Source: a bacterium
GTDB taxonomy: Bacteria; Patescibacteriota; Saccharimonadia; Saccharimonadales; Saccharimonadaceae
DNA: 46,357 nucleotides
Assembly: GCA_030429935.1 (NCBI GenBank)
Contig: JAUIGH010000001.1
Location: 1-46,357 of the forward strand
Direction: 5' to 3'
Shown here: in pieces, positions 3,739-36,530 of the stretch
Position numbering within the stretch: the stretch's first letter is position 1
How the letters are laid out: every line of letters begins with the position of its first letter
Made by a program: the position numbers and the translations under genes
The notes under the pieces: model-generated
Told to the model about the DNA's origin: nothing
Seen by the model: the letters and a program-made list of their open reading frames with translations, nothing else
Database searches by the model: none

Positions 3739-4683
3739 CTAGGCTTCGTTGTATATGCTGGTGTCGGTGTCAAAGTTTTCGTCGAACAATGATGGAGATG
3801 ACGACGGAGTCTCTCCGGTCGCTGCAAGCAGTGCAAATGCCGCGATCGCAGCCAATACCAGCAAGTAGTTCAGTGGGTCAGTCGATTGTTTGGTCAGAGC
3901 GCCAGCGTGCGCCAGTGCTGACTGATGGTAACGAAAATACAATGGTGCTGAAGCCAGGACGTTGAGCAAGCCGAGGGCGACGTAAACGATTAAAACAATG
4001 ATAATAGTCGCCACATCTGGTAATCCTGTTGCGGCTGCGGCGGTCAGTGTAGCTGCAGCAGTGGCGAGCGATACGATAACTACCGCTGCCGATCCGGCGC
4101 CAATAATGTCCCACAGGTGACCAGACGTCAGTTTGAACGAACGTTTGATAGCGTCGATAGCACCGATGTCTTCGTTGGCGATGATCGCGTTCATGTACGC
4201 CAAGCGAAGAGCGATATATATGCCAGGCACGATCAGTAGGATAAAGCCAGCGATGATCATCAGGCCAGCTAGTATGTTAGCTACGATGTACGTAAATAGT
4301 CGCTGCAACCCACGGCGAAGTGCCGCGAGTATAGGCGTTTTCTGCATATTTTGGGCTTGGACATACATGTAGTCGACGGCGACATTGACGACGAAGATGC
4401 CAAACACAAATACAATTCCGACCAAAAACAGCGCGACACTGATCGTCGGTGCGACCACATCGCTCGCGGTGCTGTTGTCGCCAGTGACGAAGCTGAGAAA
4501 GCTGACGCCCGCAAAGCCCATAATTAGACCGAACCCGACGACGATAAAGCCGAGCACCATTGCGATCATCCGCCACAGATTAGTACGGTATATGCGGCGG
4601 ACGCTTTCCATAAACGCAGTGATAGGTTGCGAGACGTATGTTTCGTTTTCGATTGGTTGATTGATGACGCGGTCGGTGCTCAC
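3739..4683 (-). CDS. polytopic membrane protein, unknown function
   Basis: 314-aa ORF with several long hydrophobic stretches and no recognisable catalytic motif. Confidence 0.55.
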   Translation of the reverse strand: MSTDRVINQPIENETYVSQPITAFMESVRRIYRTNLWRMIAMVLGFIVVGFGLIMGFAGVSFLSFVTGDNSTASDVVAPTISVALFLVGIVFVFGIFVVNVAVDYMYVQAQNMQKTPILAALRRGLQRLFTYIVANILAGLMIIAGFILLIVPGIYIALRLAYMNAIIANEDIGAIDAIKRSFKLTSGHLWDIIGAGSAAVVIVSLATAAATLTAAAATGLPDVATIIIVLIVYVALGLLNVLASAPLYFRYHQSALAHAGALTKQSTDPLNYLLVLAAIAAFALLAATGETPSSSPSLFDENFDTDTSIYNEA

Positions 4684-4716: not shown

Positions 4717-5700
4717 CTAGTGTACGCTAGTCGTGTCGATGTGCGCAATAACCGCGCGCGCCTCGTCGGTGCTGGTGGTGTGCATCAATTGATCGCGCAC
4801 GGCTGCGGCGCCATCAAAATCGCGTACATAGATTTTATAGAATCGCTTCAATGTTTCGTACGGCCGGCCAGTTTTCTCACTCCAGATGTCATATAGATCG
4901 AGATGAAGCTGGAGAAGATCGATCAGGTCTCTTGTCGTGTGAGTTGTGTCCAGTGAAGCAAACGCAAACGGGTCATGAAACACGCCGCGACCGATCATGA
5001 CACCGTTGACCCCAGGATTGTCGCGGATGAGTTGCTCGCCGTGTGCCCTGTCCACGATATCGCCGTTGATGGTCAGCAAGGTATCCGGTGCGATCTCATC
5101 ACGTAACGCCACGATGTCTGGGATCAGCTCATGATGAGCCGGGACTTTGCTCATCTCTTTTTTGGTTCGCAAGTGGATCGTCAAGTTGACGATGTCTTGA
5201 GAGAGCAGTGTGGTCAGCCAGTCGCGCCACTCGTCGACGCGGGTGTAGCCGAGTCGGGTTTTGACACTGACCGGCAGGCCGGCGGTTTTGGCGGCTTTGA
5301 TACTAGCGATGGCGAGTTCTGGCTTGCGGATCAGGGCTGAGCCGCCGGATTTAATCGCTGACTTGGCTGGGCAGCCCATGTTGATATCGATGCCATCAAA
5401 GCCGAGCTCACGGCAATGCACCGCCAGTTGCTCCATGTCGCCTGGTTCCCCGCCCCAGATCTGAGCGATGATCGGCTGTTCGTCGTCGGTTTTGATCAAA
5501 CGGCCACCGATGGCTTTTTCGCCTGCGTGTACCCAGCCCGTGGCGTTGGTAAATTCGCTGTACCACAGATCGGGCGGCGCAGCCTGAGCGATAACATGAC
5601 GAAAAATCACGTCAGTGACGGCTTCCATAGGTGCCAAGATAAAAAATGGCTGCGGGAGCTGTTGCCAAACAGTGTTCATTGGTTTCATTATCTCATACAT
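4717..5700 (-). CDS. dus: tRNA-dihydrouridine synthase
   Basis: FILAPMEAVTD, DGIDINMGCPAKS and LTIHLRT are Dus/TIM-barrel flavoenzyme motifs. I chose the start at ATG 5700 (MYEIMKPMN...). The 65-codon upstream extension in the ORF track has no family similarity and runs through a terminator hairpin. Confidence 0.8.
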   Translation of the reverse strand: MYEIMKPMNTVWQQLPQPFFILAPMEAVTDVIFRHVIAQAAPPDLWYSEFTNATGWVHAGEKAIGGRLIKTDDEQPIIAQIWGGEPGDMEQLAVHCRELGFDGIDINMGCPAKSAIKSGGSALIRKPELAIASIKAAKTAGLPVSVKTRLGYTRVDEWRDWLTTLLSQDIVNLTIHLRTKKEMSKVPAHHELIPDIVALRDEIAPDTLLTINGDIVDRAHGEQLIRDNPGVNGVMIGRGVFHDPFAFASLDTTHTTRDLIDLLQLHLDLYDIWSEKTGRPYETLKRFYKIYVRDFDGAAAVRDQLMHTTSTDEARAVIAHIDTTSVH

Positions 5701-5728
5701 GGGAAAAGCCCGCGATTGCTCGCGGGCT
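5701..5728 (-). terminator. terminator-like hairpin directly upstream of the dus start
   Basis: The minus strand reads AGCCCGCG-agcaat-CGCGGGCT followed by TTTTCCC and then the ATG at 5700. Confidence 0.4.
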
Positions 5729-5996
5729 ACAGTGTGGGGAGGACGGGCATAGTCCTCACTTTGAATATCGATCAGTCTGATTATGGCGGTGGGAATCAGA
5801 ATGAGATTCAGACAAAGGATCGACCTGATCGGTCGGCGATCACCCTGGGTTGATATCGTATACGGCTGCACTGTTTCCACCTCGTGGTATCTCATGAGAG
5901 ATATTGACGAGACAGTGCCCTGGTTCGCGAGAAAAGCTCGCGGCGCCAGATACCGGCATCGATATCGATGTGTTTGGCTGAATGTGCTCTAGAAGT

Positions 5997-6262: not shown

Positions 6263-6270
6263 ACGACCAG

Positions 6271-6342
6271 AGGACATGTCGGGAATCGAACCCGAGACCT
6301 ATACCCTGGTAGGGCAACGCTCTGCCACTGAGCTACATGTCC
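6271..6342 (-). tRNA. tRNA, apparent anticodon ACC (Gly-like identity), CCA not encoded
   Basis: Minus-strand cloverleaf: acceptor GGACATG/CATGTCC, D arm GCTC-AGTGGCA-GAGC, anticodon arm TTGCC-CTACCAG-GGTAT, variable AGGTC, T arm TCGGG-TTCGATT-CCCGA, discriminator T. Confidence 0.75.
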
Positions 6343-6641: not shown

Positions 6642-9600
6642 TCAGCTACAAGTGTATTTGTCAATAATGTCCGCTTCGTATTGTTGGATGCCCCGTAAAT
6701 TTTGCTCATAGCCCGACACGTCCGGTAGGTTGAGCGTGGTGATACACTCCCAGACGCCAGCGATCAGACGACGAAATTCTGCTAGCTCATCAGAACTAAA
6801 TGATTGCTCGAGCGCTAAGATATCGCCGCTCTGTGTCGGCTCGACAAACTGCAGGACTCCCCCATCGAACTGGTAGTTGGTATAATCACGCGAGTTTTCG
6901 ACCAGCAGTTGGTAAAACATCAGTTGCTGACGATAGCGATGCAGTTTCATCTTTTCGTACTCGGTTTTGCCGCGCCAATCACGGCTGGGTTTGCCGGTTT
7001 TGTAGTCGGTGACGCGAATGGTTTTTGCCGTAGTATCTATGTCTACTAGGTCGAGTGCGCCGGTCAGCCGAGCATCGCCGACTACGACGTCTTGGCCACC
7101 AAAGCCGAGCTCGGTTTGCTGCGACGTGTCGAAGCTGTCATAGCGGTCGGCCAAAAACGCGCTCAGCGAATCGATGCCGCGTGCCAGGTAGGTGTCAAAT
7201 TCGTGCTCTGGCAGGTGCTGGTCGCCCAGGATGCGTTCGTAATCGCCCAGTATGTCTTCGACTGGACGTTTGCTGCCGGTCGCGCGGTAGGTGTCGTGCG
7301 CGCGCTGCAGCGTAGCGTGGATAGCGGTGCCGAATTGGGCCGAAGCGGATTTGGCCTGCGGAAAGCGCAGTAGGTTGCTCAGCAAGAAATGTTGCGGTCC
7401 ACCGCGTGTGACATCGAGGAAATTGCCTAGGTGGGTGGCGGATAGTTTGTAGCGCTCGAGTGTCGGCGCCAGCAGCTGACGCATATCGCTAGTCATCGGG
7501 CGAGTCAACGTGCTACGCCAGTCCAGCGCGGTTTGCTCGGTCAGTGCTTCGATCGACGGTGTGCTGTCGGTCGTCTGTGGCGATAGTGACAAATCGGTCA
7601 AGAAGCTGGCGGCCAGTGTGGCCCGAGCATCGGCGGATTCCAGGCTGTAGCTGATATCCAGGCTAGCCCGCGCGCGAGTCATCGCCACGTAAAACAGCCG
7701 CAGTCGCTCGTCGTAGCTGTCGCCGACAGGCGCTAGCGGCAAATTGTGAGGATAACTAATCAAGCGCGAACGGCCACGCACCCGCTCGCCCCACATGCTA
7801 TCGATGGCGCCGACGATGTAGACATGATCAAATTCCAGACCTTTTGATTTATGAGCGGTCATCAGATTGATCCGGCCGGCCGATTGGTCGCTGCGGTGGC
7901 GGATGATGGTTAGCGGTGTGCCCAGTTCGCGGTGCATGGTGAGGTATTCCAGAAAAGCCTGGACCGTCGGCTCGTCATGTCCAGCGTGTTCGCGTACTCG
8001 GTCACGGATGGTGCGCAGGGCTTCGAGCGCGTCGAGGTACAGGTCGGGTTGAGTAGCGAGTTTATCAGAGCTGAAGAAATAGTTATAGAGCGGCGAGGTG
8101 AACGAGTGTGGTGCGTCTACAGCATCGTTGGTGTCGTCCAGCTCCACTCTTCCATCCTCACCATCTCGGCTGGCTTCGCGCCCAGAATCGACCACGGCTT
8201 CAGCGCGTGTCGTTTCTGGGGCTGCAGATAGCGCTCGATGGTTGAGGCTGTCAGAGTACAACTCACTCTCAGCCGCCCGCGAACCATCACTCGCCGAAGA
8301 CTCCACGTTCCCCGTGGAGCGCGAGTAAGATGATAGTAACTGGCGCTCGCGCGTGTCTGAGGAGAGTGGTGGTCGTGAGGTGGCGGAAATAGCCTGACTC
8401 GACCCAAGCACTTCATCAATCTGCTGCTCTAAGCTCTCGATGTGGATGGCGGCCGAGCGGATGATCAGCCAGTCAGCGAATGGTTTGAATACAGGATTGG
8501 CTTGCATCAATTCTAGCCACAGCTGGCGGTTGCGGTAGCTCGCCAGGCTGAGTTGGTAGATGTTGACGGGATCGTAGCCAAAAGCTGGGTGCGCCAATAT
8601 CTCGGGTAGTAGCGCATCGGCTTCGTCGTGGGCGTCACGGTGCAACGCGTCGATGATCAGCAGTAGGTGTTCGATCAGTCGGATGACATCGTGGCTGAGT
8701 GCGTCGTCACGGCGTTCGTAGTTGACGGCAATCCCCTGCTGCGCTAGATACGGCAACAGCGCCACCAATTCGTGGTGTCGGCGGGCAAAGACGGCGATCG
8801 ACTCTGGTTCCGCGCCGTCGTCTATGCGGGAGCGGATGGCGGCTGCGACAGCCTGGCGCTCGGCCAGCGCCGACGAATACTCGTGCAGCTGGACGGTTGA
8901 TTCGCCGCTGCGATGCGCTGTCAGTTCTTTGGACAAGCCGTCCATCGTCTGCTCCAGTCGATCAGTTCCTTGGGTGATGACAGCTCGAGAGTGCTCGAGC
9001 ACTGGCTGACCAGAGCGGTAATTATCGGTCAGCACGAGCACCGGTGGGTCATCATAGCGCACCCGAAAACTATGCACATTTGATGTATCTGCGCCCTGAA
9101 AACTATAAATCGCCTGATCGTCGTCGCCGACCGCCATGATGTTGGCGTCAGCGTCCGGTGCCAGTGTGTACAGCAGACGTAGCTGCGCCAGGCTCGTGTC
9201 TTGAAATTCGTCGACCATCAGATATAGGTATTTTTCCTGGATGTTAGCGCGCAAATCCGACTGGGTTTCGAGCGCGTGAATGACCTGCAGGATCATGTCG
9301 TCGTAATCATACAGACCGGCTTCTTCCATGCGGCGCATGTATTCGTAGTAGATATGGCTGAGGGCGCGGAGTTTGGTGTGGCGTCGGCGATCTTTGAAAA
9401 CAAAGGCGCCTTCGGAGTCTTTTTCGAGCCATGTGGCTTTCCAGGCGCTGATAGGCTTAGTACTGTCGGCTTCGGTGGCTTGGTCGACAGCTTGGGCGAT
9501 CGATAGTGCCAAGGTGTTGGCCAGCGGTGTGATGCCGGCAGGCAATGAGGGCTGCGGGATGTCGGCGACGGTCTGAGCGATCGGCGCCAGTTGCTCGGCG

Positions 9601-10235
9601 GTTGATTTGCTGATGCGGTGCGCGAATACGTTGGCGACGTCACGCTCGACGGCATCGAGTACGGTTTCGTTAGCGTCGATGATCGCCCGCAATTCATCGC
9701 TGGTCAGACCGCTGCGCTTGAGTTCGGATATGGCGGTCAGACTGTCACGCAAATGCGTGTATTCATCGCCGTTCATGCCAGCCAGCGGATTGTTGTAGTC
9801 CAGCTCGGCAAATATCGACCGCAACAATTCGTACTGCGCTAGTTCGTCAGCTGGCTGGAACTGGGCGCCGCGGTAAAAATACTCACGGTTTTGATTGATA
9901 ATTTCGGTACCAAAACCGTGAAAGGTGTGAATGGCGACTTTGTATGCATCAGCACCGATGATGCCACGCAGACGTTCGCGCATGGCCACCGCGCCACTTT
10001 CGGTAAAGGTCAGACACAAGATACTCTGCGGCAGGGTGTCAGTCTCGCGCAGTATCCGCGCCGTTCGCATACTCAGCAGCTCCGTTTTGCCCGTCCCCGG
10101 CCCTGCTAGCACCAGCAGTGGGCCGTCGATTTGTTCGACGGCGCTCGCTTGGGCGTCATTCAGCTTACTCGCGCGGTTTTTGTAGGCCTCTTCCATCAGA
10201 TATATTGTAGCAGGTTGCACCAGATACGAACTCAT
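6642..10235 (-). CDS. UvrD/PcrA-family ATP-dependent helicase fused to a C-terminal PD-(D/E)XK nuclease domain
   Basis: Motif I LVLAGPGTGKTE, motif II MVDEFQDTS, motif VI YVAMTRAR. The C-terminal nuclease-like part is LDLVD...IRVTDYKTGKP...YRQQLMFYQLL. The start is uncertain (ATG 10235 or 10196; the ORF is open to 10295). Confidence 0.85.
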   Translation of the reverse strand: MSSYLVQPATIYLMEEAYKNRASKLNDAQASAVEQIDGPLLVLAGPGTGKTELLSMRTARILRETDTLPQSILCLTFTESGAVAMRERLRGIIGADAYKVAIHTFHGFGTEIINQNREYFYRGAQFQPADELAQYELLRSIFAELDYNNPLAGMNGDEYTHLRDSLTAISELKRSGLTSDELRAIIDANETVLDAVERDVANVFAHRISKSTAEQLAPIAQTVADIPQPSLPAGITPLANTLALSIAQAVDQATEADSTKPISAWKATWLEKDSEGAFVFKDRRRHTKLRALSHIYYEYMRRMEEAGLYDYDDMILQVIHALETQSDLRANIQEKYLYLMVDEFQDTSLAQLRLLYTLAPDADANIMAVGDDDQAIYSFQGADTSNVHSFRVRYDDPPVLVLTDNYRSGQPVLEHSRAVITQGTDRLEQTMDGLSKELTAHRSGESTVQLHEYSSALAERQAVAAAIRSRIDDGAEPESIAVFARRHHELVALLPYLAQQGIAVNYERRDDALSHDVIRLIEHLLLIIDALHRDAHDEADALLPEILAHPAFGYDPVNIYQLSLASYRNRQLWLELMQANPVFKPFADWLIIRSAAIHIESLEQQIDEVLGSSQAISATSRPPLSSDTRERQLLSSYSRSTGNVESSASDGSRAAESELYSDSLNHRALSAAPETTRAEAVVDSGREASRDGEDGRVELDDTNDAVDAPHSFTSPLYNYFFSSDKLATQPDLYLDALEALRTIRDRVREHAGHDEPTVQAFLEYLTMHRELGTPLTIIRHRSDQSAGRINLMTAHKSKGLEFDHVYIVGAIDSMWGERVRGRSRLISYPHNLPLAPVGDSYDERLRLFYVAMTRARASLDISYSLESADARATLAASFLTDLSLSPQTTDSTPSIEALTEQTALDWRSTLTRPMTSDMRQLLAPTLERYKLSATHLGNFLDVTRGGPQHFLLSNLLRFPQAKSASAQFGTAIHATLQRAHDTYRATGSKRPVEDILGDYERILGDQHLPEHEFDTYLARGIDSLSAFLADRYDSFDTSQQTELGFGGQDVVVGDARLTGALDLVDIDTTAKTIRVTDYKTGKPSRDWRGKTEYEKMKLHRYRQQLMFYQLLVENSRDYTNYQFDGGVLQFVEPTQSGDILALEQSFSSDELAEFRRLIAGVWECITTLNLPDVSGYEQNLRGIQQYEADIIDKYTCS
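8156..8380 (-). repeat. copy A of a ~230-nt GC-rich structured repeat, inserted in frame in the helicase gene
   Basis: It shares exact blocks with 36264-36502: tctcggctggcttc (8164-8177), gggctgcagatagcgctcga (8218-8238) and cgcgcgtgtctgagg (8348-8362). It encodes the low-complexity helicase segment TSRPPLSSDTRERQLLSS...REASRDGEDG. Confidence 0.8.
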
Positions 10236-10309
10236 AGGATAATAGCTGTATGGACGATGCATGGCTCGATGAAGTAGCGCTGGAGCGCGAGGCAAAGGCC
10301 GGCTTCGGG

Positions 10310-13250: not shown

Positions 13251-13325
13251 TGGGGTGTCGCCAAGTGGTAAGGCACTGGATTTTGGTTCCAGCATTCGGG
13301 GGTTCGAATCCCTCCACCCCAGCCA
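13251..13325 (+). tRNA. tRNA-Gln (anticodon UUG), CCA encoded
   Basis: TGGGGTG-TC-GCCAAGTGGTAAGGC-A-CTGGA-TTTTGGT-TCCAG-CATTC-GGGGG-TTCGAAT-CCCTC-CACCCCA-G-CCA. Close to the canonical bacterial tRNA-Gln. Confidence 0.9.
13304..13320 (+). repeat. left copy of the 17-nt direct repeat (attL-like, inside tRNA-Gln)
   Basis: tcgaatccctccacccc, identical to 30149-30165. Confidence 0.8.
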
Positions 13326-13988: not shown

Positions 13989-15200
13989 TCATTCATTTAG
14001 TGTAGAGTGTATGGCTTCTTCGAGTAGGTTAAGCCCCTCGATTAGCACCTCTTCACTAATAGTTAATGCTGGTATGAATTTAACAACCTCATCTTTTGCT
14101 CCTACTGTTTCAATGACGAGTTTTCTTCGAAACAAAGCTTTGTAATGGTTTTTGCCATCTCCGCTTCCGGAAAACGAGTCCACACGAGAGGCCGCGTCCT
14201 CGGACCGTCGTGAAGGTTTCGAGATAAAGATCTTTTATTCTCTCTAGTCTTTCGCGAACAATTTTCTCTTTTCATTTCACTTCCGCTGAAAGCTCGTCCG
14301 ACCGCCAGAACTTTTCAAGTGCCTTGAGGCCGGCGACAATGCAAGATTATTACCCCGAAATGTGCCGTTAGGCTGCCCTGGCTTCCATATATCTAACTCT
14401 GGTTTAAGGAGTACGAGCGCCATAGGTAGGCCAAAGCCGGAAATTGACTTTGATAAGACGACATCTGGGTGTGTTTCGGCAAACTCAAAGCTAAAGAAAT
14501 CTCCAGTTCGTCCGCACCCTGCCTGGACATCGTCGACAATAAGAAGAATGCCCCTCCTAGCTGTTAAGTCGCGAAGGCGCTTTATCCACTCGGCGCTAGC
14601 GACATTTACACCCCCTTCACCTTGAAAAAGTTCAACAATGACAACTGCTGGCAGATCGACGCCGCTACTTGGGTCATCAAGAACTTTTTCTAAATATGCA
14701 ATATTGTCTAATCCATCAAAGTAGTTGTCATAAGGGGGAAAGACGGTGTCACTTAAAGGGGTACTAGAGGCGTTCCGGAACCATGAGCTGGACGTTGCTG
14801 CGAGCGAGCCTGAAATGAGTGACTAAATGCAATGACATTATGTAGTCCTGTTGCAAGACGAGCGATTTCCAGGGCTGCTTCAACTGCATTAGTGCCAGTG
14901 GGGCCAGTAAATTGAAGTTTATAGTCAAGAACGCGAAGTGTGAGGATGGTTGTCGTAAACTCCTTGATGAACGTAGCCTTAACCCTAGTGGCCATATCAA
15001 GTCCATGGATAATGCCATTACTCTGGAGATACTCGATCAGTGCCCGGACCATCGTTGGTTCGTTGTGTCCGTAATTGAGTGCGCCAGCGCCACGAAGAAA
15101 TCGATATAGCGACGCCGCTCGTCATCCCATATATAGGATCCTTCTGCCTAAAAGAGCGAAACTGAGAAAGAGCGAACACATCTTATTACATTTGATTCGT
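13989..15200 (-). pseudogene. class-III aminotransferase (diaminobutyrate--2-oxoglutarate transaminase-like), multiply frameshifted
   Basis: Minus-strand fragments in different frames: IDFF/GAGALNYGHNEPTMVRALIEYL, LQFTGPTGTNAVEAALEIAR, LLIVDDVQAGCGRTGDFFSFEFAETHPDVVLSKSISGFGLPMA..GQPNGTFRGNN, VKFIPALTISEEVLIEGLNLLEEAI. At least four frameshifts and in-frame stops. Confidence 0.75.
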
Positions 15201-15276
15201 ACTGATCGATTACGTCTGACGCTGTATTCGTGCTGTAATTTTACCAGAAATCAGCTTGTACGGTTATAATGTAGGT

Positions 15277-17482: not shown

Positions 17483-20400
17483 ATGACTAAAGCAGGCCGA
17501 CCACTTTATGCGTTTGTAGATGATTGTGCAGTACAGTGGCCTGAGATGCCTGCGCTTAGGGATGAACAGTATGTATATACCTATGGTGAGCTGAGTAAGC
17601 TTTCAAGTTACTTTGCTCATCGTATTTGTGCGACAGGTGACGTTGCGGGAAAGCACATCGGCCTGCTGTACGATCGCTCGGCCCAAAGTATTATCTTGTT
17701 GTTGGCTATTATGAAAGCCGGGGGTGTGTATGTTCCTCTCAACCGGGCATTGCCAAAAGATCGTCTTATGGAAATGGTGAGTGGAGCGGATATCACCCTT
17801 GTCGTCACTCCGGATGAGCCTTCTATTGCTATGGACCAGCCCACTATTGCTCTTGCGCCGATTGATCCTTTGCATGTCGCTATTCAGCCTCCGCTGCTTG
17901 CTAGTGAGGCACTAGCCTATGCAATTTTCACCTCTGGCTCAACGGGAATGCCGAAGCTTGCTCTGTTGAGGCACGAGGCTGTTGTGCATGTTATGACAGC
18001 GTTAGCTGAACGATATTATATCGCACGCAATGATCGTATGCTACAGTTCGCTAATCTCTCATTTGACGGGTCAATATCAGAAATCTTTGGTGCTTTTATC
18101 GCTGGCGCCGAGCTTATTATTCCGGGTGAGCAAACGACGCAAAGTCTTACGCGGCTGGCTGCCTATTTTGATAGCGAGGCTGTGAGTGTTGCTGTTTTGC
18201 CACCCTCGCTTCTTGCACACCTTCCGCTTAGCTTTCGGTCCTTAAAGACTATCGTTGTTGCGGGCGAAGCGTGCTCCTCTTCTCTTGCAAGAACGGTCAC
18301 AAAGCAAGTGCCGCATTTTATTAATGCATATGGTCCGACGGAATGTTCAATTTGTGTTTCAACCTATGAGGTGCCAAAAGATTTCGACGGAAGCATCATT
18401 CCAATCGGCGAGCCGCTCCCCGGCGTGAATACGGTCATACTGGATGAAAAAGGCCAGCCCGTCGCAAATGGAGTGACCGGTGAGCTGTATGTGGGCGGCC
18501 CTAGTCTATTTGATGGGTACTATAATGACTCGGCAAAAACATCTGCTGCGCTCATTCAGCGCGGGGCTGAGGGCCTATTTTATAAAACAGGTGACTATGT
18601 GACTCTTGAGGGTAAAATCCTTACGTACGTATCTCGATCCGATGATTATATAAAACTCCACGGCCTTCGTATCTCTCCCCTTGAGATTGAGGAAGCGATT
18701 CGGCACTCGGACGATTCTATTCGTGGTGCAGCTGTGGTATTGGTTGAGGATGGAGACGACAATAGTCTTGCTGCTTTCTATGAGAGCGCGCACGAGCTAC
18801 CTGTTGATGATATTCTTCAGTCGATAAAGCGCCAATTGCCGGCATATGCGGTGCCGCATAAGATTGTGCATCTTGCACACCTTCCGCTGACTGACAACAA
18901 AAAGATTAACCGTCGTGCACTTGCTGCACAGGTGCGGCCAAGTCTCGAACCGGCGCCAGCTTCGGATTCCTCTCTACGCGCGCTTTGGCAAACTACTCTA
19001 CGGGTGTCCATTGACGATGCAACTGATTTCTTCTTGGCGGGTGGCGACTCGCTGAAGGCGATGCGGTTAATTGCTGAAGTTGATCGGCAGTATGGAACAA
19101 GCTTAAACCTTGTGGATCTCTATAACCACTCCACCTTTGGTGATTTTTCTGCTCACATTGAAGCCTCTTCACCTTCGGCGTCTTTACGATCATACAACCC
19201 ACAGGACCTAACTCCATACGAGGTAATGATGTGGAGCGCGTCTGCACACTCGGGTAACGCAGGGGCGTACACGCTTGTGGAGGTTGTAGAGCCATATTTT
19301 GATGTAGACCCTATGCGACTTAAGCAAGCTATTGCGGCACTGTCTGATAACTTTTCTGCTGCATCGTATCGCTACATCCTTGGTGAGAATGGGCTTGAGA
19401 AACAACTGGCTTCAGGAATTAGTTTTGTTAATCATGGCGATCTCACTAGGGCGGAAGGTGACGCACTCGCCACTTCTCTTGCAAACGCTGGCATAGACCT
19501 TGCTGCCGATGCGCTCATTACAGTTCATTTTGCGCTTATTGACGCGTCCCCTACTATTATCATTCATGCTCATCATATTGTACTTAGTGCAAGTATTCTG
19601 AAGCTCTTTGTGGATGAGCTCTGGCAACGCTATGCTGGCTTGGCCGTAGTGCAGAGGGTCGAGGAAGCGCCTCGAGAATTCACCGAAGACGATTTAGCGT
19701 TTTGGAAAAAAGCTTACGACTCCACCGCTGATTATGTGCAATTGCCATGGAGCGGTATTCGGCAGCCAAAACCAAAGAACGACGGAGCTACCTTTGTAAC
19801 GACAATCGATGTATCTATGAATCGGCTAGTGTCAGAGCTTGGTATTACAAAATTTGTCTTTTACCGAAGTGTCTTCGCTCTTCTCCTCCATAGGCTTACT
19901 GGCCAACCTTCTTTTTACATTGGTAGCTCAGTTGATGTGCGTCATGGTGACTTCTTAGGGGCTCAGCCGGCAATGCTTAATTCACTACCTATTCTCTCTG
20001 TTCTTGAAAGTGAGCAGACGTTTAAGAGTTTTATCCTCGAGACACAGCAGGCTGTGCGGGCCGCCCTTAGTCATTGCCATGTACCCCTTCATGACATTAT
20101 GAAGCTTCACATATTTGAGCAAGATCGTCTCGTCGGTCCTTTTAACGTCTTGTTTGATTACGTCGAGAAGCCTAACTCTTACGAAATGCCCGGGCTTGGC
20201 ACTATTGATAGCAAGCAGTGGTTTAATTCCAGCGCTAAGCACGACCTGACTCTTACAGTTGTTGAATCGTCGGGCACTGAGTTGCAGTGGGAGTACGATA
20301 CTGACCTTCTGGATGAACGAACTGTGCAGCAATTTGCAACTATCTTCACCCACCTCTGTCATACGGTTCTGCACGACTTGCACGCTCCGATCGCTTCCCT

Positions 20401-23400
20401 CCCGCTTCTTGACGAGGGTGAGCGAGTGGCTATGCTAAGCATTGGCAGGGGTGAGACTCGAGCCCGCTCGGCAAGCTCATTCTACGAGCGGTTCTCTGAT
20501 ATGGTGAGGCGGCAACCCGATGCAATTGCTGTGCGACACCAGGGGCACAGCACAACGTATCAAGATCTGCACTACCTCGTGGAGCACTTCTCGGCAATTC
20601 TTGTGGAACAGGAACTGTCCTCAGACGCTCCTGTGGGAGTTTTTATGGAGAGGTCTCCGGAAATGGTCGCCATCATTGTTGCGCTTTGGAGGCTGGGCTA
20701 TGCGTATGTGCCTATCGAAACAACCCTCCCATTGCAACGTATCCGCTCAATTATTGAAACAACTCGAATGTCGCTTATGGTGACGAAAGTTACGCACCGG
20801 GCAAAGCTTCCTGTTGATAATATGCGGATTATCGATGAAACACATCAGCCGAAGACGATCTATACTCCCGAGACTACAGTATCGCCAAATACGCTTGCGT
20901 ATGTCATCTTTACTTCGGGATCCACGGGAACGCCTAAGGGCGTCATGATTGAGCACGCGGGTATGATGAACCACGCTGAAGGTATGATCGAATATCTCGC
21001 GCTTGATAATGCGTCGACGATTGCGCAGACTGCCTCGCATTCATTTGATATTTCTGTGTGGCAATTAACTACAATACTTATTGCTGGTGGAACGATTGCA
21101 ATCTATTCGAAAGACGAGCAAAGCAATCTCGATAGTTTTACGACGCGGCTTTTTGAGGACCGGGTCACTTTGTTGGAGCTCGTGCCATCATACATCAATA
21201 TCCTCCTCGAATATCTTGAGGATACGCACAATCAGCAGAAGCTAAAGAACATTGACGCCCTCATCTCGACGGGTGAGAACATCTCGTGGCCTATTGTCGA
21301 GGGTTGGCTGCAAAACATGCCAGGGAGTCGTTTAATGAATGCCTACGGACCGGCCGAGGCATCTGATGACACTAACTTGTTTACATTTAAAGATCTATCG
21401 GCAATGCAGCGACGAGGTCTTCCGGTTGGTGCTTCCCTTGCTAATGTTAATGCTTACGTTCTAGATGAAGCGCTAAATCCTCAACCAATTGGTGTGCAGG
21501 GTGAAATCTATATTGCAGGCATTGCAGTGGGCCGAGGATATATTAATGATCCTGAGCGAACTCGCAAGAGCTTTATTAGCAATCCTCACACGGGTGAGCG
21601 TATGTATAAAACGGGCGACCTTGGCTATTGGTCCTCGGAGGGTCAACTTGTGTATTTAGGGCGCTCTGACTTTCAGGTCAAAATTCGAGGCTTCCGGATC
21701 GAACTCGAAGAAATTGAGGCCCACATCATTCGCTACCCTCATATTACGTCAGTAGCGGTAATGGTGGTTGACCGGAATAATTCCAAGCAGCTCCACGCTT
21801 ATGTCACTGCTGATATAGATATTGATAGTAGTGTGGTGCTAAGTCATCTTCGCGACCATCTCCCTGACTATATGGTTCCTTCGAGTATTGTTCAGTTATC
21901 GGCTCTGCCGTTAAACAATAGTGGAAAGATTGATCGTCATTTTCTTGCCAACAAAGAGCGTCTGCGTTTCAAGGAAGTTGAGGAAATTGCTGGGCCGAGC
22001 GTTGAAGAAGCAGCAGTAATGGCGGTATGGCGCGAAGTCTTTGGGTTGGATTATATGACGGTTGACGATGACTACTATGCGCTTGGCGGAGACTCGATTA
22101 CGTCTTTTCGCGTCTATGCCAAGCTCAGCGCAAAGGGCTACCAGCTTACTCTTCAGGACATCCTTGCCTTCCCTATCCTGAAAGACTTCGCGAGAACCAT
22201 GACATCTGAGTCAGTTGACGTGCGGCAGGTACCTCGGATCGACAAGGCATTATTGCCGACACCGATTCAATCCCGACTCCTGGCTGCCGGGTCTAAAGAA
22301 GTAATGGCGCAGAATATTAGTCTCAAAGGTCACTGGGAGCGTGAGCGACTTAATACTGCTATCCAGGCGTCGGCACGGAACCAAGGTGTCTTTTATCTGA
22401 TGTTCGACGCAGATGGACAGCGCTTTGGCCTGGAGCCCCAATTCAAAGAGGCATATGCATTCGTTGAGTCATCTGTTGCTGAGGATGATGCTTTTGACAG
22501 GCTGAACAGGGAGCTGACGCGGAGTGTGGTTTTTGCTTATGGTGCCGAGGGTGACGACACTACAGTAAGGGCGCTTTACCTGTCGGCGAATCATTTGGTA
22601 ATGGATGTAGTGTCATGGAATATCTTTATTGCCGCGGTGAACGATGCGTATGAGGCGACGTCACGTGTCGATAATGATATCGATTACACATTTGGCTCAT
22701 GGGCACAGGCCATGCAAGATGCTGATGACCCTTCGTCTGAAATATTAGACTATTGGCGGGGTGTTCTTTTGCAAACGGTTGATGCGACGCGTGCATTAAA
22801 GCAACTTTTTGTTTACGACATTCCTGATCGGCAACTCTTTACGATGGACGCACCCCTTCCTCTGGTACAATTTACAGACGCGTCGGTTTATCTAGCCGTA
22901 TTACAAGCGCTTGCGCAAGTCCTTGATATTGCTCAGTCGGGGATATTAATAGAAACTCATGGACGGTACGGGGAGGTGTTAGGCATTGACCTCTCAAAGA
23001 CGGTGGGGTGGTTTACTCACCTCTTACCCCTGACTGGGGCGACTAGCCGTGATATTGAATCTATTCTTCGTGTAGACAATATGACTAAAGTGGCTTATGG
23101 CTTGGCAACTCAACGAGATTTACTGAATCGCGAACTAGAGCCACTAGTGGTTGTAAACTATCTTGGCAAATCTTCTAATATGAGTGGCTATGCTATGCGC
23201 CATAGTGCCCAGGAGAGGCCGATCGGCAAAGAATTACTGGAGCTGTCTATCTATGAAGACGGCTCGAATTTGTGCATTAAAGTCGTGCTCTATGCGACAC
23301 CGAAGGAGGATGAATTTGTACAGAAACTCCTTACTGCTATTACCCGGCAGCTCTCTGCGGGTGAGGCTAATTTAGAAAAAAGTCGTCTTGATGCTATTTT

Positions 23401-23428
23401 GAAAAGAATCGGAGCAAACTGTGGATAG
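17483..23428 (+). CDS. non-ribosomal peptide synthetase, two modules: A-T-C-A-T-E
   Basis: A1 motifs: AYAIFTSGSTGMPK, FDGSISE, NAYGPTE, GELYVGG, YKTGD, SRSDDYIKLHGLRISPLEIE. T1 is GGDSL (Ser523, nt 19049-19051). C-like motif HHIVLSA (aa 697-703). A2 motifs: LAYVIFTSGSTGTPKG, FDISVWQ, NAYGPAEASDD, GEIYIAG, YKTGD, GRSDFQVKIRGFRIELEEIE, NSGKIDR. T2 is GGDSI (Ser1538). The E-like domain has LPTPIQ and NHLVMDVVSW. Confidence 0.9.
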   Translation: MTKAGRPLYAFVDDCAVQWPEMPALRDEQYVYTYGELSKLSSYFAHRICATGDVAGKHIGLLYDRSAQSIILLLAIMKAGGVYVPLNRALPKDRLMEMVSGADITLVVTPDEPSIAMDQPTIALAPIDPLHVAIQPPLLASEALAYAIFTSGSTGMPKLALLRHEAVVHVMTALAERYYIARNDRMLQFANLSFDGSISEIFGAFIAGAELIIPGEQTTQSLTRLAAYFDSEAVSVAVLPPSLLAHLPLSFRSLKTIVVAGEACSSSLARTVTKQVPHFINAYGPTECSICVSTYEVPKDFDGSIIPIGEPLPGVNTVILDEKGQPVANGVTGELYVGGPSLFDGYYNDSAKTSAALIQRGAEGLFYKTGDYVTLEGKILTYVSRSDDYIKLHGLRISPLEIEEAIRHSDDSIRGAAVVLVEDGDDNSLAAFYESAHELPVDDILQSIKRQLPAYAVPHKIVHLAHLPLTDNKKINRRALAAQVRPSLEPAPASDSSLRALWQTTLRVSIDDATDFFLAGGDSLKAMRLIAEVDRQYGTSLNLVDLYNHSTFGDFSAHIEASSPSASLRSYNPQDLTPYEVMMWSASAHSGNAGAYTLVEVVEPYFDVDPMRLKQAIAALSDNFSAASYRYILGENGLEKQLASGISFVNHGDLTRAEGDALATSLANAGIDLAADALITVHFALIDASPTIIIHAHHIVLSASILKLFVDELWQRYAGLAVVQRVEEAPREFTEDDLAFWKKAYDSTADYVQLPWSGIRQPKPKNDGATFVTTIDVSMNRLVSELGITKFVFYRSVFALLLHRLTGQPSFYIGSSVDVRHGDFLGAQPAMLNSLPILSVLESEQTFKSFILETQQAVRAALSHCHVPLHDIMKLHIFEQDRLVGPFNVLFDYVEKPNSYEMPGLGTIDSKQWFNSSAKHDLTLTVVESSGTELQWEYDTDLLDERTVQQFATIFTHLCHTVLHDLHAPIASLPLLDEGERVAMLSIGRGETRARSASSFYERFSDMVRRQPDAIAVRHQGHSTTYQDLHYLVEHFSAILVEQELSSDAPVGVFMERSPEMVAIIVALWRLGYAYVPIETTLPLQRIRSIIETTRMSLMVTKVTHRAKLPVDNMRIIDETHQPKTIYTPETTVSPNTLAYVIFTSGSTGTPKGVMIEHAGMMNHAEGMIEYLALDNASTIAQTASHSFDISVWQLTTILIAGGTIAIYSKDEQSNLDSFTTRLFEDRVTLLELVPSYINILLEYLEDTHNQQKLKNIDALISTGENISWPIVEGWLQNMPGSRLMNAYGPAEASDDTNLFTFKDLSAMQRRGLPVGASLANVNAYVLDEALNPQPIGVQGEIYIAGIAVGRGYINDPERTRKSFISNPHTGERMYKTGDLGYWSSEGQLVYLGRSDFQVKIRGFRIELEEIEAHIIRYPHITSVAVMVVDRNNSKQLHAYVTADIDIDSSVVLSHLRDHLPDYMVPSSIVQLSALPLNNSGKIDRHFLANKERLRFKEVEEIAGPSVEEAAVMAVWREVFGLDYMTVDDDYYALGGDSITSFRVYAKLSAKGYQLTLQDILAFPILKDFARTMTSESVDVRQVPRIDKALLPTPIQSRLLAAGSKEVMAQNISLKGHWERERLNTAIQASARNQGVFYLMFDADGQRFGLEPQFKEAYAFVESSVAEDDAFDRLNRELTRSVVFAYGAEGDDTTVRALYLSANHLVMDVVSWNIFIAAVNDAYEATSRVDNDIDYTFGSWAQAMQDADDPSSEILDYWRGVLLQTVDATRALKQLFVYDIPDRQLFTMDAPLPLVQFTDASVYLAVLQALAQVLDIAQSGILIETHGRYGEVLGIDLSKTVGWFTHLLPLTGATSRDIESILRVDNMTKVAYGLATQRDLLNRELEPLVVVNYLGKSSNMSGYAMRHSAQERPIGKELLELSIYEDGSNLCIKVVLYATPKEDEFVQKLLTAITRQLSAGEANLEKSRLDAILKRIGANCG

Positions 23429-26270: not shown

Positions 26271-26968
26271 CGCTTCTTGATATTAGGCTAGTAAATGATG
26301 GGATTAAGACAAAGGCCGTGTCCCTCTTGTCGCCTGAGGAAATGGAGCGTTATGGGAGATTCCGTCATGCGTCCGATGCTAATCTATTTCTTTTTGGTCG
26401 GTTTCTTGCGCGCTGTCTTGTTTCCCGTGTCGCCACGAGGCGACCTGAAGATGTTGCAATCCTGGTTGCCGGTACCGCAACTAAGCCCTATGAGTCGCAG
26501 CGGCTGATAGAGTTTAGCATTTCACACAGTGGAACCTTTGTGGCAGTTGCTGTCTCTCAGCGACCGGTTGGTATCGACGCACAGGTGCACGACCAGACAC
26601 GGACTGATGTGTTTGATAGATTCTTTACTGCTGAAGAAAAAGGCTACGCCCACCAGTCGTTGAAGAATTTTTATAGATTATGGACGTCTGTGGAGTCGCT
26701 AGCAAAGATTACAGAGCTCGGCTTCAATGAAGCGCTCATGAATCGTACCCCCCGGTTCAAGAGTGATTTGAGTGGCTACACTTTCAATCAGACAAGCTAT
26801 TACATAAGTACGCTCGTTCAAACAGAGGATCTGACATTATCTGTCGTTACAGCTGAAGACGTGCTCTTTCGGAAGTACCCGTCAGCGAGAGAGGGACTCC
26901 TTGCTGGGATCGATACTGATGAGCTTTCACTTGAAGTTTACTCTGGGAGTGTAGACTCTGACGTGTAG
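26258..26968 (+). CDS. 4'-phosphopantetheinyl transferase, Sfp type
   Basis: FSISHSGTFVAVAV...VGIDAQ and WTSVESLAKITELG resemble the Sfp-family core motifs. The start overlaps the upstream gene by 13 nt. Confidence 0.75.
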   Translation: MYIVALLDIRLVNDGIKTKAVSLLSPEEMERYGRFRHASDANLFLFGRFLARCLVSRVATRRPEDVAILVAGTATKPYESQRLIEFSISHSGTFVAVAVSQRPVGIDAQVHDQTRTDVFDRFFTAEEKGYAHQSLKNFYRLWTSVESLAKITELGFNEALMNRTPRFKSDLSGYTFNQTSYYISTLVQTEDLTLSVVTAEDVLFRKYPSAREGLLAGIDTDELSLEVYSGSVDSDV

Positions 26969-27975
26969 ACTTCGGCGTCACGTATATTGGCGCCGGTTTC
27001 AAATCCTCTTACAAATGAGGCGAATGCACCTGGTGTGACATCGTGGTTGTATCCACCGCCCATAATAACGAGAGTGCGCATGTTCATGTGACCAAGGCGG
27101 TCTCCAATTTCGGCATATTCCTGATCATCCAAATGGGTTAGTGGTGGCAGGCCTGGCCACTCGCGAGTATGGCCGTCAAACCCTGCTTCGATAATAAGGT
27201 AGTCGGCACCAAATGACTTAATCTTTTCTTGGGCACGTGCTAATAATTCGAAGTATTCCTCGTTTGAGATGCCAATAGGAAATGGAAGATTAAGGATGGT
27301 CCCCTCTCCTTCGCCAATGCCAGTCTCGTCTGCATGGCCAGTGTGTGGGAAGATCTCATTGGGATCGGCATGAAGGGATACGTAAAGGACCTCTGATTCA
27401 TCTTGAAAGATGTCCTGGATGCCATCACCGTGATGAACATCAAAATCCAGGATTGCAACTCGTTTGCCTGCTTCTTTGAATGCCTCGGCGGCAACGGCGG
27501 CATTATTGAAGAAACAAAAGCCATGATAGAACTCTCGCCCTGCGTGATGTCCGGGTGGTCGAGAGACGGCAATTGTAAGGCGCTTCTCTTCATCGTTCAG
27601 CAGTGCGTCGGCCGCAGCTAGAGATGCTTCGGCCGAAAAGAGGGCTTGCTCAAATGTGCCTGGATAAATTGCCGAAGCATTTGTCTCAGTGTCGCGGTCA
27701 TACGGCGACTTTAATGGGTTGTTATCTGTTGCTTGTAGACCAGTCTCATATATGGCTTGTATCATTACGGGTGAATGAAGTTTTGAGACAATGGCATAAG
27801 TTTCCTTGTGGACTTCAGGGACTACTACCCACTCTGTAGGAATGGTGTCGGAGAGGAGTTCATTTATGATGCCGTAAAGCCGCTCTGGAACATCCCATGG
27901 CTGTCCCTCGTCATCAATCCATCCCTTATGCTTGTAATGCTCGGAGTTATGGTACACGTGTCGTTCGGCTGGCAT
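26938..27975 (-). CDS. histone-deacetylase-family amidohydrolase (AcuC / acetylpolyamine amidohydrolase-like)
   Basis: RPPGHHAGREFYHGFCFFNNAAV, DFDVHHGDGIQDIF, SLHADP..FPHTGH. Start chosen at ATG 27975. The 3' end overlaps the PPTase 3' end by 31 nt. Confidence 0.8.
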   Translation of the reverse strand: MPAERHVYHNSEHYKHKGWIDDEGQPWDVPERLYGIINELLSDTIPTEWVVVPEVHKETYAIVSKLHSPVMIQAIYETGLQATDNNPLKSPYDRDTETNASAIYPGTFEQALFSAEASLAAADALLNDEEKRLTIAVSRPPGHHAGREFYHGFCFFNNAAVAAEAFKEAGKRVAILDFDVHHGDGIQDIFQDESEVLYVSLHADPNEIFPHTGHADETGIGEGEGTILNLPFPIGISNEEYFELLARAQEKIKSFGADYLIIEAGFDGHTREWPGLPPLTHLDDQEYAEIGDRLGHMNMRTLVIMGGGYNHDVTPGAFASFVRGFETGANIRDAEVYTSESTLPE

Positions 27976-28080
27976 AGTAGATTTTACTTTACAGTAATAA
28001 TGTAAACGTATCAATACAGCCACAATTTACACCAAAAGTGAACCAAATGGGTCAAAAGGGTTCATGTAAATCATGGATAG

Positions 28081-28108
28081 AAAAACGACCGATTTCGGTC
28101 GTTTTTTT
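28081..28108. terminator. bidirectional rho-independent terminator
   Basis: AAAAA-CGACC-gatttc-GGTCG-TTTTTTT, downstream of the recombinase-like gene. Confidence 0.55.
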
Positions 28109-28162
28109 GTTTCGATTCTCGCAAGCCGCTCACCCCAATAAGGAAGTGAGTCTAGGACTTTA

Positions 28163-36230: not shown

Positions 36231-36263
36231 ACTCAAAGACTCTGGGGCTTGCAGCTTCCCCCA

Positions 36264-36502: not shown

Positions 36503-36530
36503 ATGATGAACGGACACGACCAAGTGTCGT

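Follow-up and report, generated by a model that had tools for sequence, protein, structure and literature searches.

The window analysed here is one whole contig of 46,357 bp, and the copy counts given for the source genome cover that contig only. On its minus strand, a gene at 6642-10295 encodes a UvrD-type helicase with a C-terminal PD-(D/E)XK nuclease, as judged from Pfam, the orthologous proteins and a phmmer search of the PDB. The open reading frame comprises 1217 codons, the true start being probably the ATG at 10196, and it contains in frame, without any stop codon, a structured segment designated composite copy A (8146-8392; delineated by blastn, repeat search and alignments against its counterpart). 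Composite copy B (36252-36512; blastn and repeat search) has the reverse orientation. It fills the 300-nt gap between two convergent genes, that of an AI-2E family transporter (35097-36230, plus strand; identified by Pfam and by synteny in the related loci L085 and L086) and cysS (36531-37958, minus strand; Pfam), whose stop codons abut it on either side. In the relatives L085, L086 and L087 these two stop codons lie 3-6 nt apart, and copy B is therefore an insertion.

The two copies are 70% identical over 252 nt (E = 3e-17, blastn) and were aligned by a repeat search of the window in two arms, 8143-8238 with 36419-36514 and 8282-8389 with 36256-36363. A sequence-only reading had described them as one element of about 230 nt, with three blocks identical in both copies and two helices preserved by compensatory changes. 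The segment is indeed repeated, structured and GC-rich. Each of the exact blocks (8164-8177/36480-36493, 8219-8238/36419-36438 and 8348-8362/36283-36297) has two occurrences in the window and no more, one on each strand, where none is expected by chance; only the start of the second block, a 20-mer, had to be corrected from 8218 to 8219. Both helices were recovered as well. A 7-bp hairpin reads CTCCACG/CGTGGAG in copy A (8301-8319) and CTCTGCA/TGCAGAG in copy B (36326-36344), and the closing helix, formed in copy A by CCTCAC (8156-8161, plus strand) and GTGAGG (8375-8380, plus strand), is CTTCAC/GTGAAG in copy B, a C-G pair in A corresponding to U-A in B. RNAalifold predicted 60-71 pairs from two-copy alignments, 16-19 of them changed on both sides. 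What did not stand is the notion of a single element: the unit is a composite of about 245 nt, made of two modules, H1 and H2, and a variable hairpin under a terminal helix, and both modules recur independently and also occur alone. The central hairpin of copy A, GGCTGTCAGAGT..ACTCTCAGCC (8246-8274), was defined from alignments and folds; the corresponding segment of copy B is unlike it in sequence and forms hairpins too.

Compared with insert-free orthologs, the segment adds an in-frame peptide of about 85-90 residues to the helicase, not the about 75 first proposed. As had been claimed, copy B has no stop in this sense frame either, and both copies are open in a second sense frame as well. 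The phmmer search of the PDB places the insert in the part of the protein equivalent to domain 2B of PcrA. In an AlphaFold2 model, residues 603-696 (8109-8390 of the window) form a 94-residue disordered loop that lacks secondary structure, at a pLDDT of about 30, with well-predicted helices on either side. Judging from these predictions, the insert would occupy a structurally permissive surface position, in a disordered loop of the 2B-like region.

Structure and distribution of modules H1 and H2

Module H1 is a hairpin of 90-130 nt in which a conserved asymmetric core is accompanied by variable paired stems. A covariance model, R1, comprises 91 positions, to which the outer stem adds a median of 14 bp. 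It matches copy A at 8156-8247 on the plus strand, antisense to the helicase (76.8 bits, E 2e-21), with the core ..GGCTGGCTTCGCGCC.. / ..GGGCTGCAGATAGCGC.., and copy B at 36410-36501 on the minus strand (78.8 bits). A metagenome scan with the core pattern returned 63 loci against a rough chance estimate of about 7. Five pattern matches in viral contigs were rejected as H1; all represent an unrelated family of human-gut coding sequences that recurs among the metagenome matches. Of the 69 pattern matches that the loci from the two scans contain, about 35 are true hairpins, a count of 32, or 29 distinct ones, without the coding-family and high-GC matches.

Further copies elsewhere, which the suggestion of a repeat family had led one to expect, were found with covariance models: 49 or more of H1 and 10 matches to H2. 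Model R1 detected 49-54 H1 copies at 50-98 bits in 300-365 kb of Saccharibacteria contigs, including some that the pattern had missed. Copies are sparse away from the helicase neighbourhood; the 52.6 kb of L084-L087 gave 0 matches. A scan of 185,579 species genomes for the exact 20-mer of the window yielded 7 matches of 20-25 nt, all attributable to chance, and it says nothing on the spread of H1, because the canonical core reads GATGTCG and that of the window GATAGCG.

The proposed covariation is strong. In an alignment of 49 H1 copies, 95.6% of cells are paired compared to 77.9% after shuffling, a value reached in none of 500 shuffles; cells changed on both sides number 263 compared to 70 in shuffles, and slid controls lay at 34-49%. 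The conserved part of the module is internal. No terminal sequence is conserved among copies, and the outer stems are entirely different from copy to copy, also within one contig. Freedom from stops in all six frames is confined to the core, and whole intergenic copies are not clearly enriched in open frames (2.1 vs 1.8 of 6).

Module H2 adopts a Y-shaped fold of about 100 nt (99 model positions) and is present in four related genomes. Model R2 locates it at 8278-8377 on the plus strand in copy A (102.2 bits) and at 36268-36366 on the minus strand in copy B (102.4 bits), where it includes the hairpin 36326-36344. The fold is composed of an outer stem CCATCAC/GTGGTGG, a tandem G.A internal loop, a GCGCGAG/CTCGCGC hairpin and the 7-bp hairpin at 8301-8319, which carries a TTCCC loop. 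An RNAalifold analysis of four copies gave 32 pairs, 13 of them changed on both sides. Further R2 matches lie at 6406-6504 of L013, within a methyltransferase gene, at three places in L014 and at one in L015, and H2 occurs on either strand of its host gene. The motifs CUGAGGA and GAA suggested a hammerhead ribozyme. This candidate was dismissed on inspection; the helices do not follow the order required for the three-way core, and the positions vary (CUGAGGG, CUGAUGG).

Host sites in related genomes

Most orthologous helicases are 1083-1100 aa long and have no insert. The expectation of one insertion with definable borders proved too simple, because the helicase site carries H1 alone, inverted H2 or other modules in relatives and is thus a recurrent hot spot with differing contents. 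H1 alone occupies the helicase linkers of L009, L011, L012 and L014; L013 has H2 alone, inverted, and L010 an inverted H2 beside a partial H1. Relatives may have no module, H1, H2 or different ones at this site, in two reading frames and in both orientations. The encoded peptide is not a conserved feature, contrary to what its similarity in copies A and B had suggested: the same nucleotides of the H1 block are read as ..SAA.. in the window, L012 and L014 and as ..ERHLQP.. in L009, L010, L011 and L044.

Two neighbouring genes behave in the same way. The gene of the tRNA dihydrouridine synthase, Dus (4717-5895, minus strand; protein alignment and covariance model matches), has an insertion hot spot that is empty in the window and occupied by H1 in L012 and L044 and by other modules in L009 and L013. 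A site in a tRNA methyltransferase gene is empty in L011, and the resident module differs between genomes, being H1 in L012, H2 in L013 and a third module, H3, in L009. In L012, H1 is found in the methyltransferase, helicase and Dus genes at once. Similarity among the copies does not follow the host site: the methyltransferase copy of L012 is 85% identical to the helicase copy of L014, and the helicase copy of L012 only 47%. Between-gene copies within one genome reach 84% identity for H2 in L013 and 89% for H3 in L009.

Modules are thus read through in frame in three genes. In the neighbouring genes, whose cases were not chosen via a protein search, the host frame is open in 6 of 7 (Dus four times, methyltransferase three times), the exception being H3 in the L009 methyltransferase gene, where an in-frame TAG splits the open reading frame. 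No target-site duplication is visible at copy B compared with the empty site, in the helicase or at the methyltransferase site, the borders being blurred by divergence. A presence/absence difference between L025 and L042 spans a 600-nt segment and is not a clean test.

Origin and possible function of the modules

The feature is probably a composite of two dispersed hairpin-forming repeat modules, whose families spread duplicatively through the genomes of Saccharibacteria (TM7, candidate phyla radiation), and the best reading of these families would be selfish or neutral palindromic DNA of the kind known from Rickettsia. The modules would land both between and within genes, and intragenic ones would persist only if the frame is kept and the loop tolerant, to be translated into a disordered low-complexity peptide. 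In the source genome, a common closing helix would have come to unite three parts, the hairpin H1, a short variable hairpin and the Y-shaped H2; the resulting composite of about 245 nt may then have been duplicated whole, in the simplest case out of the helicase gene into the cysS/transporter junction. Pairing could be kept by selection on a DNA or RNA hairpin that is needed in copying, or by template-switch correction between the palindrome arms, and the conserved asymmetric core is a putative recognition site of a protein.

A possible, if rather unlikely, alternative is that the hairpins are functional cis-acting RNA modules on the sense strand, serving as processing or stability elements, unconventional terminators or protein docking sites at the asymmetric core, and that intragenic copies are tolerated by-products or regulators of the host mRNAs. 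Such a role would suit a core conserved with invariant non-Watson-Crick positions next to stems that need only pair. It would also suit the retention of intergenic H1 hairpins at orthologous positions in related genomes, with compensatory changes in the outer stems, and the divergent-promoter loci, which hold two hairpins, each facing its nearest gene. Transcripts usually carry 5'-ACGACAUCUGCAGCCCGAG...GCGAAGCCGUCU-3' (29 vs 8 raw counts; about 19 vs 8 by a hand count with orthologous loci collapsed), and mismatches in the outer stems are mostly wobble-compatible on the same sense strand (56 vs 18, seen on the model strand as A.C and G.U, respectively). This wobble asymmetry could, however, arise from transcription-linked mutation bias alone, and the variable helices of the model show no asymmetry (G.U 13 vs A.C 12). 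Moreover, eight copies have the other orientation to transcription, and comparison of the collinear loci L076 and L021 reveals the whole hairpin inverted in place. The three invariant G.U pairs of the core are found on the strand opposite to the orientation-favoured one, and on that opposite strand the composite of copies A and B also folds better, at -86.5 kcal/mol antisense to the helicase compared to -70.4 kcal/mol on the sense strand. The stems are not followed by a U-tract, and H1, H2 and H3 swap at the same protein sites, which are empty in most orthologs. The strand evidence is thus split, with core G.U pairs and folding energy favouring the helicase-antisense strand and orientation bias and outer-stem wobble the sense strand. 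If the hairpins do act in RNA, they would represent a new class of bacterial mRNA element.

Orthologous retention, orientation bias and wobble asymmetry together form the pattern that a functional RNA element would give, and in weighing the readings they were counted against selfish DNA.

A broader and doubtful proposal is that H1, H2 and H3 are what can be seen of a modular nucleic-acid system of a so far undescribed kind, either confined to the candidate phyla radiation or enriched there, in which the conserved asymmetric core of structured elements would be read by a dedicated protein. Such a system would need neither terminal repeats nor target duplications to move and might, for example, use template switching or a hairpin intermediate made of DNA or RNA; its modules would invert in place and might serve as sense-strand processing or regulatory modules even within the coding regions of essential genes.

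The sequence-only reading had also raised an excised RNA element. An RNA-level intervening sequence, intron-like or endonuclease-excised, would be removed from the helicase transcript and its in-frame appearance would be incidental. In its favour, the insert has a high degree of structure with a terminal helix that closes it and is located at a conserved position in an essential-looking gene, and one related module, the H3 of the L009 methyltransferase gene, contains the in-frame TAG. Still, this origin is very improbable because the host frame stays open in six of the seven cases unselected by protein search; a hand estimate puts the likelihood of such an outcome by chance at a few in 10,000, each case of 100-290 nt at this G+C content counting for about 0.2. 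Embedded copies are also richer in stop-free frames than intergenic ones (3.1 vs 2.1 of 6), insert lengths vary freely among helicase orthologs, and even a cutoff of E <= 10 brought no match to models of group I or group II introns or of other ribozymes. Least probable of all is a fast-evolving disordered protein linker under protein-level selection, in which copy B would be duplicated coding DNA in decay and the hairpins would be incidental. Many orthologs have a linker of variable length at this site, and the AlphaFold2 model predicts the peptide to be disordered, but this explanation is already contradicted by the occurrence of the same nucleotide blocks in different frames and on both strands among hosts, by identical modules in unrelated genes and intergenic DNA, by pairing covariation far above controls, and by a phmmer search of 1.84 billion representatives, in which the only relative of the insert peptide was the same helicase in a close strain.

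In diversity-generating retroelements, differences fall at template adenines, a reverse transcriptase is encoded nearby and the variable repeat lies at the 3' end of the target gene. A template/variable pair of this type was rejected for copies A and B; their paired compensatory changes involve all base types and are not adenine-specific, the window has no reverse transcriptase, and the insert lies mid-gene.

Relation to known repeat systems

Genomes of Saccharibacteria and of the candidate phyla radiation measure about 1 Mb and are thought to hold little dispensable DNA. Palindromic repeats in the coding regions of another group with small genomes are described: the Rickettsia palindromic elements, "selfish DNA in protein-coding genes", comprise ten families of about 150 bp (PMC10969869; see also PMC1779305). 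These short palindromic repeats are both intergenic and inserted in frame in unrelated housekeeping ORFs, whose proteins gain a surface peptide, and they have no known associated transposase (PMC10969869). The resemblance proposed at the outset holds at the level of behaviour. As in Rickettsia, several palindromic families, alike in kind and not as sequence homologs, occur in a small-genome, host-dependent bacterium; H1 and H2 are palindromic units of about 100-150 bp that form a long hairpin; several copies lie at unrelated intergenic and intragenic loci (the helicase and the cysS/AI-2E spacer of the window, the genes of L012); and, apart from the H3 with its TAG in L009, intragenic modules keep the host frame in genes with insert-free orthologs (helicase, Dus, methyltransferase). 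Unlike each Rickettsia family, which corresponds to a conserved peptide, the modules vary in frame by host and, for H2, in orientation; H1 combines a conserved internal core with copy-specific outer stems, and modules join into composites and take one another's place at shared protein sites. The difference in phylum and in G+C content makes sequence homology to the Rickettsia families unlikely.

The defining features of MITEs are terminal inverted repeats common to their copies, target-site duplications and, in most cases, a cognate IS. Neither a conserved terminal repeat of this type nor a target-site duplication was found for the modules, which sets them apart from classical MITEs. H1 copies share no termini, the terminal helix CCTCAC/GTGAGG is shared by composites A and B only, and no IS was found in the window. 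The likeness lies in small repeats that fold into stem-loops and are fused in frame with ORFs, as prokaryotic MITEs are small non-autonomous stem-loop repeats that sometimes create translational fusions (Coxiella QMITE1, intragenic ERIC and Anabaena elements; PMC5896051, PMC10969869).

The modules also share hairpins in both orientations, mosaic units and maintained pairing with REP and BIME sequences. REP/REPIN elements with their RAYT transposases and BIME mosaics are extragenic hairpins near gene ends, in both orientations, with mosaics and maintained pairing; REPs measure 20-40 nt and the arms of REPINs are two copies of one conserved sequence. In contrast, the arms of the H1 core are conserved but asymmetric, the units measure 90-130 nt and enter ORFs, and no RAYT gene was seen in the window. 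Template-switch correction of quasipalindromes and inversion mediated by inverted repeats are general DNA mechanisms, which would explain arm compensation and in-place inversion without selection on RNA but leave the conserved asymmetric core and the spread to new loci unexplained.

At gathering score, Rfam 15 recognized tRNAs only and no family matching the elements, and at E <= 10 only generic long-hairpin miRNA models appeared, well below threshold. A literature search revealed no description of the modules in Saccharibacteria or Patescibacteria, and they are apparently undescribed in the phylum. Next to the Rickettsia elements, the paradigm of selfish DNA within coding sequences, they would constitute a second and phylogenetically remote case. 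Repeat families are not known to combine module swapping at a single site with an internal core that is conserved while the outer stems are free, and both traits call for a mechanism. Several structured-repeat families repeatedly colonise the same loops of the helicase, the tRNA dihydrouridine synthase and the tRNA methyltransferase, which accounts for many odd low-complexity inserts in proteins of the phylum. Annotators and structure predictors should be cautious with such segments, which are nucleotide-level elements and not protein domains; the modules also provide ready-made markers of strain-level variation. No gene for a transposase, a RAYT-type protein or a reverse transcriptase was found among the ORFs of the window. 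Its sole recombinase is a serine-recombinase ORF, located 8 kb from copy B beside an NRPS island.

The composite repeat and its modules

The window, a complete contig of 46,357 bp, contains two copies of a repeat in opposite orientation, copy A at 8146-8392 and copy B at 36252-36512, each with a G+C content of 60% compared to 52% for the window. Three exact blocks listed by an earlier, sequence-only reading each occur twice, once on each strand, where chance predicts none; the 20-mer among them starts at 8219, one base after the position first assigned to it (8218). BLASTN aligned 8153-8388 with 36505-36256 (70% identity, 252 nt, E = 3e-17), and a repeat search of the window returned the same two arms. 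Copy A lies in frame and without a stop, as had been proposed, inside the 1217-codon ORF of a UvrD-type helicase with a C-terminal PD-(D/E)XK nuclease (6642-10295, minus strand). Copy B occupies the whole 300-nt gap between the convergent genes for an AI-2E transporter (35097-36230, plus strand) and cysS (36531-37958, minus strand). Named homologs of the helicase and of CysS belong to Candidatus Saccharibacteria. Both copies are stop-free in two of the three sense frames. RNAalifold folding of the two sequences predicted three domains and a closing helix CCUCAC/GUGAGG, and recovered the compensatory pairing noticed earlier, with 16-19 of 60-71 pairs changed on both sides.

A comparison with the DNA of eight helicase orthologs upheld the repeated structured unit of about 230 nt and divided what had been taken for a single element into module H1, a variable hairpin and module H2 within one closing helix. 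H1, the left part (8156-8247 in A; 36410-36501 in B), is a hairpin and stands alone in the helicase genes of four relatives (loci L009, L011, L012 and L014). H2, the right part (8278-8377; 36268-36366), is Y-shaped, with an outer stem, a tandem G.A internal loop and two hairpins, one of 7 bp with a UUCCC loop and a second that is G+C-rich. In helicase genes it stands by itself in L013 and beside a partial H1 in L010, in both with the opposite gene-relative orientation, and only a rearranged remnant is present in the closest ortholog, L008 (74% protein identity). Copies A and B share the derived features CTCGGCTGGCTTC and GATAGCGCTCGA, which are absent from canonical H1; this shows that the composite was duplicated as a unit.

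A covariance model of H2 (R2), built on four sequences with 32 pairs of which 13 changed on both sides, matched both window copies (each at 102 bits), H2 in the helicase genes of L010 and L013, three sites in L014, one in L015 and, as a new copy, H2 in the L013 gene for tRNA (U5) methyltransferase; no H2 was found with R2 in the JGI loci carrying H1. A third structured module, H3, of about 290 nt and 91 predicted pairs, was seen in L009 in the methyltransferase gene (7912-8194), in the Dus gene (14929-15220; 89% identical to the methyltransferase copy) and as a partial inverted copy (4008-4098).

Spread and covariation of H1

A two-block pattern of the H1 core retrieved 63 loci from JGI metagenomes, compared to about 7 expected by chance on our own rough estimate. 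Both scans together gave loci with 69 matches, about 35 of them true long hairpins with the core, and a filter on core context and G+C below 56% kept 32, 29 of them distinct. The remaining matches were rejected as one unrelated coding family and high-G+C chance matches. A conserved sequence of human-gut and viral contigs without a hairpin (TGCAAGCTCGTCCACTGTTTTTCCGGGCTTCGCGTTCACAAG...) accounts for the unrelated matches in L018, L020, L022, L024, L037, L041, L050, L059, L060, L070, L075, L077 and L079-L082. The gene adjoining one H1 locus falls into a 90%-identity cluster with NCBI proteins named Candidatus Saccharibacteria.

The H1 consensus on the strand of its covariance model (in copy A the plus strand, antisense to the helicase) is ..AGACGGCUUCGCNCCGGG-apical stem-CUCGGGCUGCAGAUGUCGU.. 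and is flanked by an outer stem of near-perfect pairing, which has a different sequence in different copies, including those of a single contig, and reaches past the model by a median of 14 bp and a maximum of 38 bp. The model R1, built from 31 copies, detected 49-54 H1 copies with 50-98 bits in 300-365 kb, including some missed by the pattern; the window copies score 77 and 79 bits. The DNA-level searches covered JGI metagenomes and fetched loci, many of them picked for the H1 pattern or the helicase, so that copy densities are biased. These H1 copies and the H2 copies outside the window bear out the repeat family suggested from two members. Covariation was likewise confirmed across 49 H1 copies: 95.6% of cells are paired compared to 77.9% in shuffles (0 of 500 reach the observed value) and 34-49% after sliding of partners, 263 cells are changed on both sides compared to 70 in the control, and 21 of 28 pairs covary. 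Rfam holds no family for H1, the weak matches being generic plant miRNA hairpin models only, and 52.6 kb around cysS in relatives (L084-L087) contain no H1 or H2 copy.

The colonised genes for tRNA U5 methyltransferase, helicase and Dus are neighbours within about 9 kb. Module-rich neighbourhoods are L012 4729-14011, with three H1, L013 5349-16090 and L014 1-7293, with two H1 and three H2 matches in 7.3 kb. This crowding could reflect local spread or merely the sampling of where searches were made.

Insertion sites, strand and inversion

Most of the best 120 helicase homologs (1083-1100 aa; for example in L084) have no insert, and in a minority (1109-1181 aa) the very same position is filled by about 15-90 residues of low complexity. 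The methyltransferase site (LRDM / DLYSGVG) is empty in L011 and filled with H1 in L012, H2 in L013 and H3 in L009. The Dus site (GRGVFHDPFxFA / LIDLL) is empty in the window and is occupied by H1 in L012 and L044, and by other modules in L009 and L013. The cysS and AI-2E stop codons lie 3-6 nt apart in three relatives compared to 300 nt in the window. Judged by clean empty counterparts at these four sites, the modules are evidently insertions, not ancestral sequence. Grouping of H1 copies by sequence does not follow the host site: between the methyltransferase H1 of L012 and the helicase H1 of L014 identity is 85%, with a common 1-nt deletion, compared to only 47% between the helicase H1 copies of L012 and L014. 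A different apex is common to H1 of L009 and L011 and to an intergenic one in L014. The copy now resident in the helicase gene has thus been exchanged or acquired anew, and not just passed down by descent.

The modules probably form a new family of hairpin DNA that is selfish or neutral; its pairing would be kept because copying requires it or through correction of one arm by the other in template switching. The main rival, a functional RNA module on the sense strand, is a possible but rather doubtful reading, to which orientation bias, retention at orthologous sites and a conserved non-canonical core lend weight. Evidence on the functional strand points both ways. The sense strand is favoured by the model strand being antisense to host or flanking genes in 29 of 37 classifiable H1 copies (about 19 versus 8 after collapsing orthologous loci, by our own count) and by outer-stem mismatches, which on the model strand are A.C in 56 cases and G.U in 18 and are thus wobble-compatible on the mRNA strand. 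The model strand is favoured by three nearly invariant G.U pairs in the H1 core, by the composite folding energy (-86.5 versus -70.4 kcal/mol on the other strand) and by the composite G.U cells (9 versus 2, own count). Inside the variable R1 helices these two kinds of mismatch are equally frequent (13 versus 12), which is neutral. Equally neutral is a whole hairpin inverted between collinear orthologous loci (L076 1669-1763; L021 5422-5516); the outer-stem mismatches are inverted with it, and the arrangement implies that the palindrome inverted in place.

Adjacent H1 pairs on opposite strands, about 40-75 nt apart, lie between divergent genes (L053 10632-10881; L047 636-888; L065 543-765; L035 1658-1910), each model strand being antisense to the nearer gene. 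The mRNA-sense strand of the core contains GCGAAGC (window 8171-8177, complement), a heptamer known as an unusually stable DNA mini-hairpin, and the other arm the palindrome CTGCAG.

Reading frame and known elements

The frame is kept open by six of seven embedded modules in neighbouring genes, which were not picked by protein similarity. Only H3 in the methyltransferase gene of L009 interrupts it, through a TAG in the hairpin loop CCAACUAGUUGG (CAG in the Dus copy) that splits the ORF into 7027-8028 and 8164-8607. Embedded H1 copies have on average 3.1 of six frames free of stops compared to 2.1 in intergenic ones, and all six frames of the core are stop-free. Embedded modules are, by these frames, most likely translated and not excised, and intron-like excision is highly improbable.

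The helicase inserts of four homologs (P0008, P0009, P0012 and P0021) contain SE(R/Q)HLQP, which is the 20-mer block in another frame; the window reads ERYLQP. This difference in frame was the first sign that conservation in the insert lies in nucleotides rather than amino acids. AlphaFold2 with a 37-sequence alignment gave a mean pLDDT of 79.7 for the helicase and about 30, without secondary structure, for residues 603-696 (window 8109-8390), which are flanked by confident helices in the all-helical part equivalent to PcrA domain 2B. The 84-residue insert peptide has no relatives beyond its own helicase among 1.84 billion representatives, the single match being an incomplete sequence of that helicase in a closely related strain; a purely protein-level linker is the least credible explanation.

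As hairpin DNA, H1, H2 and H3 behave as the suggested likeness to Rickettsia palindromic elements would have it. Those elements, which inhabit a reduced genome, fall into several families of palindromes about 100-150 bp long; they are scattered over intergenic DNA and unrelated housekeeping genes, which they enter in frame at permissive sites, and no transposase is known to go with them (PMC10969869); dispersal, in-frame entry and permissive sites are the same here. In contrast to them, the Saccharibacteria modules have no conserved peptide, a conserved and asymmetric core with free outer stems, an orientation bias and inversion in place, and at a given site they join up or take one another's place. 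Hallmarks of a classical MITE, namely terminal repeats common to all copies, a duplicated target and a cognate IS, were absent or not demonstrable. Literature searches yielded no description of such elements in Saccharibacteria or Patescibacteria, and Rfam no model; going by these sources, elements of this kind are known already, and the variant and its phylum are new.

Elsewhere in the window, the helicase is closely followed downstream by a tRNA-Gly with anticodon ACC (6270-6342, minus strand; ARAGORN; Rfam tRNA 59.8 bits); glycine tRNAs with A34 are unusual in bacteria. An NRPS cluster at 17483-29140, downstream of tRNA-Gln (13251-13325), resembles an integrated island; an NRPS would not be expected in Saccharibacteria. 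The cluster encodes proteins of 1981 aa (adenylation, carrier and condensation domains) and 949 aa (condensation, carrier), a phosphopantetheinyl transferase, a histone-deacetylase-like gene, GNAT acetyltransferases and a serine-recombinase-domain ORF (28163-29140).
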